Source: Candidatus Latescibacterota bacterium
GTDB taxonomy: Bacteria; Latescibacterota; UBA2968
Direction of reading: 5' to 3'
DNA: 64,000 nucleotides
Assembly: GCA_965222605.1 (NCBI GenBank)
Contig: OZ244960.1
Span: 4,256,001 to 4,320,000 of the forward strand
In this document: in pieces, positions 10,564 through 64,000 of the stretch
Layout of the letters: every line of letters starts with the position of its first letter
Position numbering within the stretch: position 1 is the stretch's first letter
The notes under the pieces: model-generated
Told to the model about the DNA's origin: nothing
Database searches by the model: none
What the model saw: only the letters and a program-made list of their open reading frames with translations
Translations under genes and position numbers: made by a program

Positions 10564-10573
10564 AGTGTGGGAT

Positions 10574-10618
10574 GGTGTACAACTGGTCGCAGTCCAGACC
10601 AGTTCACGGAGAAGTGAG
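10574..10618 (+). repeat. GG(T/G)GTAC-tagged hairpin repeat, copy A
   Basis: GGTGTAC-AACTGGTC-GCAGTCCA-GACCAGTT-C, followed by a second small hairpin TCAC-GGAGAA-GTGA, between hisA and thiL. Confidence 0.65.
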
Positions 10619-23257: not shown

Positions 23258-23281
23258 ATTGCTCACACAAAGACACGGAAC

Positions 23282-23357
23282 GGTGTACAACTGCGACGGT
23301 GAACGAGCCTCAGGCTCGTTGTACCCCACTCACCAGCAGTTCCACACACAAAGGGGG
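23282..23357 (+). repeat. GG(T/G)GTAC-tagged hairpin repeat, copy B, with a nested inverted family member (23301-23327)
   Basis: Near-identical to the reverse complement of 63126-63169 except for an inserted GAACGAGCCTCAGGCTCGTTGTACCCC. Confidence 0.8.
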
Positions 23358-62720: not shown

Positions 62721-62927
62721 TTATCCGAGCTTGAACAGAATGAGAGTTCCGAGAGTCAACAAGGTTGTGATTTGAATGCCGATAACCCAACGAATATCGT
62801 TTCTCAAATCACGCTGGCCTTGCTCAACGCTTGTCAAGCGCGTGTTCATCTGTTCATTAATGCCTTCAATGCGAGACAAGCGGGCATCAAACTCTGCCAA
62901 CTTGTCTTGAGGTGTCGGAATCTGCAT
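62721..62927 (-). CDS. Small coiled-coil protein with a C-terminal TM anchor
   Basis: MQIPTPQDK...RLSRIEG...DIRWVIGIQITTLLTLGTLILFKLG; AAGGA RBS. Confidence 0.65.
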   Translation of the reverse strand: MQIPTPQDKLAEFDARLSRIEGINEQMNTRLTSVEQGQRDLRNDIRWVIGIQITTLLTLGTLILFKLG

Positions 62928-63125
62928 TGTGTTTTTCCTTTGGGGGTGGTTATTCCGAGTTGTCGCGTGGTGGTCTCCCCTTTTGGGATGCGTTATAGAA
63001 ATTTTCAGCAAATTCATGAATTATTCAGATTATAAGAAATATAGTCACTGATTGCGGGGATTCCAAGGATTTTTAGAAATATCCCTTGCTATTTCCTATG
63101 TCTAAATTTAAACTCTGCTCCACGT

Positions 63126-63169
63126 CCCCTTTGTGCGTGGAACTGCTGGTGAGGCGTCGCAGTTGTACA
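63126..63169 (-). repeat. GTAC-tagged hairpin repeat, copy D (IS insertion target, 5' part replaced by the IS)
   Basis: Minus strand TGTACAACTGCGACGCCTCACCAGCAGTTCCACGCACAAAGGGG, matching copy B at 23284-23356. Confidence 0.8.
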
Positions 63170-63199
63170 GGTATAAGAAAGTCAAGTAGAAAAAGTGCC

Positions 63200-63384
63200 A
63201 AATTCGAGCGCGAGCAGGTATTCCTGCCAGATATATCTCAGGGCTTTACACAGGTATGTCATTCAGGGTCAGTGCCCTTAAATTGCTTCATTCAAGCTCC
63301 TGAGAAGGCAGGCGAATAGGTCACCGCTTCAGGGTCAAAGCCCGTATGTACAACTTCGTTCTATCCTGCTCATCCCAGGAGCTT
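63200..63384 (-). ncRNA. Putative bridge/seek RNA
   Basis: Nested stems (GCTCCTGGGA/TCTCAGGAGC, GCAGG/CCTGC, ATAG/CTAT) enclose a loop containing AGTTGTACA, complementary to the flanking target; motif GGGCNNNGACCCTGAA occurs twice. Ends are approximate. Confidence 0.65.
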
Positions 63385-64000
63385 AAGCTGCTTTTTTTAC
63401 TTGAGATACTACCTTTTCCTTTTTGGTGTTGCAGTTTATGTTGAAAGTTTCTTGTTTATTGACCAGCGCGAAGAGGATGCGTAAGAGTTTAGAGCAAAGG
63501 GCAATAATGGCTTTTTGTGTGGGTTTTCCTGCCCCTTTAAATCGGTGATAGGCCTCCTTGAAGATGGGATTATGGAAGATGAGAGGAAAGACCGCTGTAT
63601 AGAGGATGCGTCTAAGTCTTGCGCGTCCCCTTTTGGCGATTCTTCGTGTGCCCTTTTTATATCCTGAAGAGATTTCAAAGAGGTTTAAGCCAGCCAGTTT
63701 GATGAGTTGTTCAGGTGCTTGATAAGCCTCAAAGGGGCCTGTTTCGCCGAGTATAGATGCCACACTGATTGGTCCCAGTCCAGGGATTGAGCACATATAT
63801 CCTGCTTGGGGTATATGTTGTAGGTGTTCGTTCATTTGGGTTTCGATTTCTTGCAGTTGGGTTTTAAGCAGATCCATTAAGCAGAGGGTTTGCATCAGTT
63901 CGAGGCAGATACTGTCTATGGCCTGGTTCACGCCAATGGAGGTGGAAGCCGCTTCAAGGACGGCCTGTGCTTTGGCTTTGGAGAGGCGACGATTTGATGC
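63383..64000 (-). CDS. IS110 family transposase/recombinase, C-terminal part (5' end outside the window)
   Basis: SIPGLGPISVASILGE, LAGLNLFEISSG, IAKRGRARLRRILY and AIIALCSKLLRILFAL motifs. Confidence 0.93.
   Translation of the reverse strand, partial: ASNRRLSKAKAQAVLEAASTSIGVNQAIDSICLELMQTLCLMDLLKTQLQEIETQMNEHLQHIPQAGYMCSIPGLGPISVASILGETGPFEAYQAPEQLIKLAGLNLFEISSGYKKGTRRIAKRGRARLRRILYTAVFPLIFHNPIFKEAYHRFKGAGKPTQKAIIALCSKLLRILFALVNKQETFNINCNTKKEKVVSQVKKAA

Follow-up and report, generated by a model that had tools for sequence, protein, structure and literature searches.

The 64-kb window analysed here is a stretch of 64,000 nucleotides (nt) from a Candidatus Latescibacterota bacterium (GenBank assembly GCA_965222605.1, contig OZ244960.1, positions 4,256,001 to 4,320,000 of the forward strand; G000:C1:4256001-4320000 in our genome set), and near its right edge it holds, on the minus strand and cut by the window end, a member of the IS110 family of insertion sequences (IS). 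We think it very probable that this element is RNA-guided, with its guides assigned as described below. Judged from its sequence it is an active or recently active IS110-family insertion sequence; mechanistically it is a bridge/seek-RNA insertion sequence, with all of the defining features that can be tested in silico. We propose that an RNA of about 175 nt, whose gene starts right after the transposase stop codon, would direct the element's DEDD/serine recombinase, and that in this RNA an outer helix, P0, would close a target module and a donor module. The guides of the target loop would address a repeat (AGUUGUACA pairing with TG+TACAACT and AGCGGUG with the bottom strand), those of the donor loop would address the joined IS ends (AGCAAU with the left ATTGCT, AUACCUG with the right ATACC-TG), and exchange at the common TG would insert the circularised 1590-bp element, with no duplication, at the 5' foot of a lineage-specific hairpin repeat. 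Joining of the ends would also create a promoter that transcribes the transposase gene with the guide RNA as its 3' part. By analogy with characterised members of the family we would expect the RNA to be made, to bind the protein and to guide strand exchange, and a circle to form. The element and its insertion site are laid out as follows.

63168-64000, minus strand: insertion sequence, cut by the window (whole element 63168 to about 64757), defined by four copies and an empty-site contig
63168-63169, minus strand: right copy of the TG core; the left copy lies beyond the window, at about 64758-64759
63383-64000, minus strand: 3' part of the transposase gene (start codon at 64651, outside the window; stop codon 63383-63385), matched by PF01548, PF02371 and NF033542
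63180-63185, minus strand: outward -35 hexamer TTGACT, 12 nt from the IS end
63141-63167, minus strand: right half of the target repeat, which is flank and not IS; empty copies read ...A GCGG TG TACAACTG[stem-loop]CAGTTCA
63161-63167, minus strand: right target TACAACT
63159-63164 and 63141-63146, minus strand: hairpin arms AACTGC and GCAGTT

The genome (G000) carries four copies of the element at 98.9-100% identity, with outer flanks that differ among them, and one 106-bp remnant (BLASTN). The block common to the four copies is 1609 bp long, and its outer 6 and 11 bases are GAGCGG... and ...TACAACTGCGA. This block was considered as the IS and rejected: GAGCGG-TG-TACAACTGCGA is also found joined at sites that hold no element, within the wider repeat context that surrounds copies B and D, so the terminal 6 and 11 bases are target sequence and the element proper is 1590 bp including one core copy, running from TG-ATTGCTATAAT... 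to ...CTTATACC-TG. TG stands at both junctions without any target duplication and is the only sequence common to the left junction, the right junction and the empty sites, which bears out the core guessed in an earlier sequence-only reading of this DNA. That reading had also allowed that the true end might lie beyond 63126, which would make the repeat part of the IS. The right end falls at 63168/63169 and everything from 63167 down to 63126 is flank, as judged by comparison of the four copies with empty sites and by an empty allele, a 1229-nt contig in the DNA run X3 that matches 283 nt of unique flank without mismatch. The contig jumps from 1282 to 2873 of locus L127, skipping 1283-2872 (1590 bp), with two letters that fit either side. 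On the strength of these matches it is this locus without the IS, on evidence that is good but not perfect because only 30 letters lie beyond the joint; the locus is polymorphic, being empty in a DNA run from another study. What we see, in short, is site-specific insertion without target duplication around a short core common to junctions and empty site. The right end is the longer non-coding one (215 nt vs 108 nt on the left). A sister genome holds seven copies, mostly at different sites. Copy C was considered as an independent off-target event and rejected, as its flanks recur in G004: it has flanks identical to those of G004_4, so the two represent one inherited insertion common to both genomes.

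The remnant in G000, outside the window at 6101668-6101790 on the minus strand, is a truncated copy of a different subtype. Its left target half, GAACGG-TG, is joined directly to ACATACCTGTG..., which is the 3' arm of the donor loop, and it continues with the last ~117 nt of the right end, closing in TG-TACAACTGCGA; the deletion ends at an internal TG. The remnant has TTTACT as its -35 hexamer, and in sequence it resembles the G019-type element more than the four full copies.

The full transposase is 422 amino acids (aa) long and matches PF01548 (DEDD_Tnp_IS110) at E = 1.4e-29, PF02371 at E = 7.2e-20 and, at 225.8 bits (cut-off 140), the NCBIfam model NF033542, 'IS110 family RNA-guided transposase'. 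Residues D21, E74, D117 and D120 and the S328-S329-G330 motif are invariant or nearly so among 17 homologues, down to 42% identity, and the DEDD and Ser-Gly residues align with the matching motifs of the solved ISCro4 chain 9t56. The protein thus has the DEDD RuvC-like N-terminal domain and the Ser-Gly C-terminal domain by which IS110-family recombinases are defined. Beyond the four copies, tblastn finds no IS110-family genes in the genome itself. Phylum-wide, 5 of 168 genomes matched (G000 included), with no homologue at E <= 1e-60 outside genus g1; a profile search of genome contigs with a six-protein alignment returned genus-level relatives only, because its patterns are too specific. Proteins at 52-62% identity exist, on contigs that are not among our 80 metagenome loci, and the relatives with DNA context include none of intermediate divergence (50-70%). 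With tblastn against plasmids we obtained hits at 34-39% identity, mostly in Bacillaceae, that carry no label more specific than 'IS110 family transposase'.

Directly behind the stop codon lies the candidate RNA gene; RNA positions are counted here from the base that follows the stop codon, so that RNA position n is window position 63383-n. The gene and its guides are as follows.

63208-63382, minus strand: candidate bridge/seek RNA gene of about 175 nt, found with our covariance model R1 and starting directly after the stop codon
63347-63355, minus strand: right target guide AGUUGUACA (loop 1, 5' side), complement of top-strand TG+TACAACT
63322-63328, minus strand: left target guide AGCGGUG (loop 1, 3' side), identical to top-strand AGCGG+TG
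63282-63287, minus strand: right donor guide AGCAAU (loop 2, 5' side), complement of ATTGCT
63251-63257, minus strand: left donor guide AUACCUG (loop 2, 3' side), identical to ATACC of the right IS end followed by TG

The two target guides flank the hairpin GGGCUUUGACCC in loop 1, and because AGCGGUG is identical to the top strand it pairs with the bottom strand. The sequence-only reading had started from this loop, where AGTTGTACA (minus strand, 63347-63355) is the exact complement of TGTACAACT at 63161-63169 and GCGGTG stands at 63322-63327; on checking the sequence we found every motif it named in its place. It had staked the interpretation on other copies inserting at sites related to the guide and on covariation of guide and target among homologues, and we find both. 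Homologous elements occur in four other genomes of the same genus and on a metagenome contig (L042), giving a guide/target table of 16 rows with three guide variants. All 13 rows with the right guide AGUUGUACA (the GUUGUACA type) lie in (G/A)CGG-TG-TACAA(C/A)T sites (four in G000, seven in G004, one each in G013 and G019), with GCGGUG as left guide, or ACGGUG in G019, and the remnant at 6101668 lies in a site of this type as well. The changed guides are found in correspondingly changed sites, ATCTG-TG-T(T/C)(C/T)ATC, in 3/3 rows: two relatives at 77-78% protein identity carry UGAUGAACA and AUCUGUG and sit in ATCTG-TG-TTCATC (G020) and ATCTG-TG-TTTATC (G013_b), while L042, an 84% relative, carries AGAUAAACA and AUCUGUG and sits in ATCTG-TG-TCTATCT. 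When seven right ends are aligned, the variable columns concentrate in the two loop-1 arms, and taken together with the altered flanks this means that arms and target halves changed together; by this comparison of sequences, both arms have changed in step with both target halves. Among distant homologues (35-41% protein identity, 23 distinct loops) the sequence just behind the conserved IS end holds the best complement of the 5' arm in most cases, about 17 on our reading, and the longest 5'-arm match averages 8.7 in cis vs 6.2 in trans (336 unrelated pairings). The element therefore has a target loop whose arms match opposite strands of the two target halves and covary with them.

Some of the distant homologues have flanks of a particular kind. 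At L045 and several L0xx loci the left flank (GAGGGGTCAG) is the reverse complement of the right flank (ACCTGACCCC), so those elements insert at the centre of a palindrome.

The target itself is a hairpin repeat, AGCGG-TG-TACAACT, which gives the element a 14-bp address. Its 13-mer GCGGTGTACAACT occurs in G000 in 23 exact and 37 one-mismatch copies, where by our own arithmetic about 0.2 exact copies would be expected by chance, and with up to two mismatches it occurs 8 times in the window vs 0.76 expected. The uninterrupted copies that the sequence-only reading had reported near 10574 and 23282 are indeed there, at 10572-10584 (ATGGTGTACAACT) and 23280-23292 (ACGGTGTACAACT). At least 60% of the 60 sites have an A immediately before the 13-mer, and AACTNN is followed within 70 nt by its exact inverted complement at 42 of the 60, vs 75 of 5000 random places; the stem varies between copies with compensatory changes. 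With inverted arms downstream of the target sites, the insertion point is the 5' foot of a hairpin-forming repeat. Targeting of palindromic repeats has precedents among related elements, such as the IS1111-type ISPa11, which targets repetitive extragenic palindromic (REP) sequences.

A larger composite repeat with inverted ends (TGTCATTCTGAGCG...GTCGAAG / target / TAGCAGTTCATCT ... CCTCAGCATGACA) encloses the hairpin repeat, as seen near G000 positions 3805285, 4211263, 4859686, 3342768 and 6101790. Copies B and D and the remnant all lie within members of this composite repeat, whose build suggests a nested repeat resembling a miniature inverted-repeat transposable element. The flanks of L004, L022 and L042 show that the retargeted relatives occupy another short repeat, in which GTTCATCTGC / TTTATCTG units, partly in tandem, abound; similar units (cgttcatctgcgtc) are also present in G000, which has no element aimed at them.

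The donor side can be read in the same way. The arms of loop 2 flank the hairpin GGGCACUGACCC, and ATTGCT, which the right donor guide complements, is the hexamer that follows the core at the left IS end. Because loop 2 and the IS ends are constant among close relatives, covariation has to be sought in distant homologues, of which 20 loci were compared. The right donor guide has three states there, each matched by its IS end: AGCAAU with ATTGCT in the element described here, AGCAUU with AATGCT in L045, L091, L057 and L100, and AGCAAC with GTTGCT in L065. The left guide has at least two, AUACCUG with ATACCTG here and (U/A)ACCAG with AAACCAG in many distant homologues. The earlier suggestion that ATACCTG(T) at 63250-63257, which recurs at the IS end, is a donor guide was right, then, on the evidence of donor covariation. 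Both arms of the donor loop match and covary with both IS ends, except that the right guide pairs incompletely with the core.

A third copy of AUACCUG stands at 63206-63214 (minus strand GGAAUACCUGC), in the stretch that separates the donor stem from the P0 3' strand. The 77-84% relatives have AACCGC or CACCCGC instead, and because of its loss there this copy is probably a mere by-product of the P0 sequence.

The guides are presented by a structure that we can model in two ways, and its elements are as follows.

63365-63371 (RNA 12-18), minus strand: outer helix P0, 5' strand GAGCAGG, pairing with 63212-63218
63212-63218 (RNA 165-171), minus strand: outer helix P0, 3' strand CCUGCUC, pairing with 63365-63371
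63316-63364, minus strand: target module, with closing stem 63361-63364/63316-63319, internal loop and inner hairpin GGGCUUUGACCC (63332-63343)
63223-63312, minus strand: donor module, a composite stem and inner hairpin GGGCACUGACCC (63266-63277)
63307-63312/63223-63228, 63299-63304/63237-63242 and 63294-63297/63243-63246, minus strand: donor composite stem
63373-63382, minus strand: 5' strand of a 10-bp stem, pairing with 63296-63305 (RNA 1-10 with 78-87)

Modelling of these pairings indicates that the conserved, active fold is probably a three-way junction in which P0 closes the target and donor modules, and we consider it likely that this nested fold is the functional one. Across seven close relatives 97.0% of its cells are paired, with four pairs changed on both sides, and across 43 distinct distant homologues 93.7% are paired, with 30 of 33 pairs changed on both sides; slid controls, in which partners were moved by 1-3 columns, gave 36-60%. 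Every part of the fold contributes. In P0, A16:U167 becomes G:C in four of the seven relatives and all seven pairs covary in the distant homologues. In the target closing stem (RNA 19-22 with 64-67), U20:A66 becomes C:G, with a U:G intermediate. The donor stem (RNA 71-76/155-160, 79-84/141-146 and 86-89/137-140) has two compensatory pairs in the G019 relative (G74:C157 to C:G; C75:G156 to G:U is among the changes in the seven relatives), and 15 of its 16 pairs are changed on both sides in the 43 distant homologues. The covariance model built in this analysis, on which the case for a conserved secondary structure is made, matches 49 times in 79 metagenome loci, immediately 3' of the transposase gene and mostly over its full length from the stop codon onward; in the genome it matches here and at the other three copies, whose RNA genes are near-identical, and it finds 0 free-standing RNA copies beyond these four. 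A motif that the sequence-only reading had singled out, GGGCNNNGACCCTGAA, occurs exactly twice in the window (63262-63277 and 63328-63343), with none expected from 100 shuffles.

The sequence-only reading had drawn a different fold, in which a long stem (63373-63382 with 63296-63305, GCAGG with CCTGC and ATAG with CTAT) closes a free-standing target loop and the donor loop would sit in a separate downstream hairpin. These strands do pair in the element described here, over 10+5+4 bp in both centroid and minimum-energy folds, at an energy equal to that of the nested fold (-37.6 vs -37.1 kcal/mol), and in the seven relatives the 10-bp stem is invariant but for one G:U to A:U change that keeps pairing. 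The same seven sequences, however, leave the long-stem structure with 92.9% pairing and one pair changed on both sides, vs four for the nested fold, and the downstream local hairpin that it requires is broken in four of the seven (74% paired). Nor does the stem persist with distance: in the 43 distinct distant homologues it is at chance (52.2% paired vs 41-52% in slid controls), whereas the donor stem that competes with it for 63296-63305, and is excluded by it, is the one with the abundant covariation. Loop 1 is probably not closed by this long stem, which competes with the family-conserved fold, and we regard a functional long-stem fold as distinctly unlikely. The 10-bp stem may be either fortuitous or a lineage-specific alternative state.

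One form that such an alternative state could take is a switch. The 10-bp helix starts at the first base after the stop codon and is kept in all seven genus-level relatives, and when the first 10 nt are removed, the nested fold becomes the predicted minimum. As long as the guide remains the 3' tail of the transposase mRNA, the helix might keep the donor module closed, and loss of the first ~10 nt, or a terminating ribosome, might then free the active three-way junction. If this were true, maturation of the guide would be coupled to synthesis of the transposase. The clade also combines a protein of IS110 length with a common outer helix and with an RNA that is IS1111-like in its position and arm order. 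That the helix is a lineage-specific conformational switch, and the clade an undescribed architectural variant of bridge RNAs, is an idea that we think unlikely.

How the nested RNA would be expressed is suggested by the IS ends. The outward TTGACT noticed in the sequence-only reading has a counterpart in TATAAT, 5 nt after the core in the left end, and ends joined through one TG would read TTGACT-17 nt-TATAAT. The same TTGACT/TATAAT spacing is, on our reading, present in L045. Promoter scans found no sigma-70-like promoter in the integrated element or near flanks, and there are no terminator-like sites on the RNA strand; an integrated RNA gene without a promoter of its own would have its RNA made as the 3' part of the transposase transcript. 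A junction-promoter design has been reported for ISEc11 and ISEc21 (PMC11187229), and ISPpu10 has a junction promoter and none in the integrated state (PMC12288879). Two metatranscriptome studies yielded matching contigs. In X15, a 458-nt contig equals window 63173-63630 with 0 mismatches and stops 5 nt inside the IS end; X15 contigs do not cover flank bins 1074-1221 of L127, a gap that says nothing on transcript ends. In X17 we found a variant of about 95% identity, one contig of which runs from the right end into another repeat copy. DNA may be present in the RNA libraries behind both sets of contigs. Among the contigs of four public runs, the only form of those data searched, no circle junction was seen.

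Right ends of the distant clade (L045 and several L0xx loci) also keep TTGACT 12 nt from the tip.

Could the element be a decayed fossil, in which the complementarity records a past insertion preference and neither RNA nor transposase works any longer? There are only four copies despite at least 23 perfect empty targets, there is one truncated remnant, and the integrated state has no promoter-like site. This last trait is a known design of the family, though (ISPpu10, PMC12288879), and decay fits poorly with four intact open reading frames that are 99-100% identical, near-identical RNA genes, a locus that is empty in another study's DNA run and the seven copies, mostly at different sites, of the sister genome. 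We find it very unlikely that the element is a fossil of this kind.

Several points weigh against the RNA-guided interpretation as we have set it out. The RNA is predicted from sequence, and contigs from RNA libraries cannot show strand, ends or level; the junction promoter presumes sigma-70-like recognition, and promoters of the host phylum are uncharacterised. Guide/target covariation among close relatives comes down to three guide variants and few independent events, and natural sites show one guide mismatch at G000 copy C, G004_7, G019, G013_b and L042. On the donor side, AGCAAU is followed by UU where CA would be expected for the core, leaving one G:U and one mismatch, a defect with a parallel in the right donor guide of IS621, which also pairs discontiguously (PMC11208158). 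As to the fold, the target closing stem has only 4 bp and its fourth pair is broken in four of the seven relatives; alignment A5, with its 43 distinct rows, came from the covariance model built on the nested structure, so its pair counts favour that structure; the minimum-energy fold does not stand out from shuffled sequence (z = -1.1; 28 of 200 shuffles do equally well); and two mutually exclusive folds are close to isoenergetic. A search of Rfam 15 with window positions 62900-64000 (E up to 10) found no matching family and one chance snoRNA hit. The idea that the target-like and end-like internal copies act as DNA, being subterminal protein-binding or synapsis sites recognised by protein-DNA or DNA-DNA contacts, draws on the lack of a directly observed RNA and on inverted repeats between the ends (12 bp at left 52-63/right 29-40, and an imperfect one of ~9 bp nearer the ends), but we find it scarcely credible, because the segments lie in loop arms of a structure with abundant compensatory changes, as expected of an RNA and not of a DNA site, match opposite strands with the core included in each, as in characterised bridge/seek RNAs, and accompany a protein of a family with experimentally shown RNA guidance.

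Other members of the IS110 family are at large in the same lineage. G010, G018, G016 and G058, which belong to the same genus and class as G000, have 51, 19, 7 and 11 matches, respectively, to unrelated IS110-family transposases at 28-31% identity, and the family has expanded repeatedly in this lineage.

Having assigned the guides, we can ask what the element adds. A bridge/seek RNA and its 14-bp address could be read from raw sequence in an uncultured phylum, and within one genus there is natural retargeting, a switch between repeat families by changing both arms of one loop. The element is a further orthologue, with 422 aa, a TG core and a ready pair of natural guide/target sets for specificity studies, and its target adds one more to those that lie at the foot of a DNA hairpin. 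In the literature searched, paper supplements aside, we found no description of this clade or phylum.

The IS1111 label given in the sequence-only reading fits in part. The subterminal inverted repeats of IS1111 elements, of 7-17 bp, lie nearer the ends than those here, which are 20-60 nt from the ends: the perfect 12-bp repeat, which on our reading is only partly kept in the 77% relatives, and overlapping 7-bp matches at left 23-32/right 21-29. What fits the label is the longer non-coding region downstream of the transposase gene and the guide order. In seekRNAs of the IS1111 type the top-strand match lies 5' of the bottom-strand match (PMC11187229), and the element resembles ISEc11, ISPa11 and ISKpn4 in this arm order and in its non-coding region downstream of the transposase (PMC11187229). 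It also resembles these elements in that each has its own target and in the long RNA form, ~150-170 nt there (PMC11187229). What does not fit is the length of the protein: transposases have 330-350 aa in the IS1111 family and 395-455 aa in the IS110 subgroup (PMC11187229), and 422 aa falls in the latter range. As some IS110-type elements have a 3' non-coding region too (PMC11187229), the subgroup traits are mixed and the IS1111 label is not established.

Compared with IS621, the element has the same combination of a DEDD and serine recombinase with one RNA bearing target and donor loops (PMC11208160, PMC11208158). In IS621 the left guides pair with the bottom strand and the right guides with the top strand, core included (PMC11208160), and this strand rule, the lack of target duplication and the promoter at the circle junction, predicted in the element described here, are common to both. 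Unlike IS621, the RNA is 3' of the gene and not 5', and the arm order is reversed, with the right guide 5' of the left. The core is TG where IS621 has CT, the protein has 422 aa vs 328 aa in the solved chain, with weak sequence similarity (E = 3.9e-7), a common outer helix closes both modules, and the right donor guide is not fully core-paired. Looking by eye, we recognised no handshake guides of the kind found in IS621.

Targeting of palindromic repeats is already known from ISPpu9 (PMC12288879) and ISPpu10 (10.64898/2026.03.19.712850) of Pseudomonas putida, which likewise insert into multi-copy intergenic palindromic repeats, with the target next to a stem-loop. A hybrid promoter forms in the minicircle of ISPpu10 (10.64898/2026.03.19.712850), as our predicted junction promoter would. 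The phylum is different and the repeat unrelated, however, and the stem-loop overlaps the right target, whereas ISPpu10 has a 5' extension (10.64898/2026.03.19.712850). Free-standing RNA copies such as ssr9 have no counterpart in the genome analysed here. Natural retargeting, too, has been described, for ISMch6 relative to ISEc21 (PMC11187229). In both cases a few guide bases separate close relatives (72% identical there, 77-84% here), whose sites are altered to match; the case described here differs in that both arms changed together, in three guide variants with several insertions per variant. Bridge RNAs have been predicted for most members of the family, in which more than six million candidate regions have been mined (PMC13604230), and for 93.0% of IS1111s (PMC11208160). 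Set beside these systems, the element is a clear, ordinary further case of the known bridge/seek-RNA class, already mined at large scale, and it leaves the picture of how such elements work unchanged.

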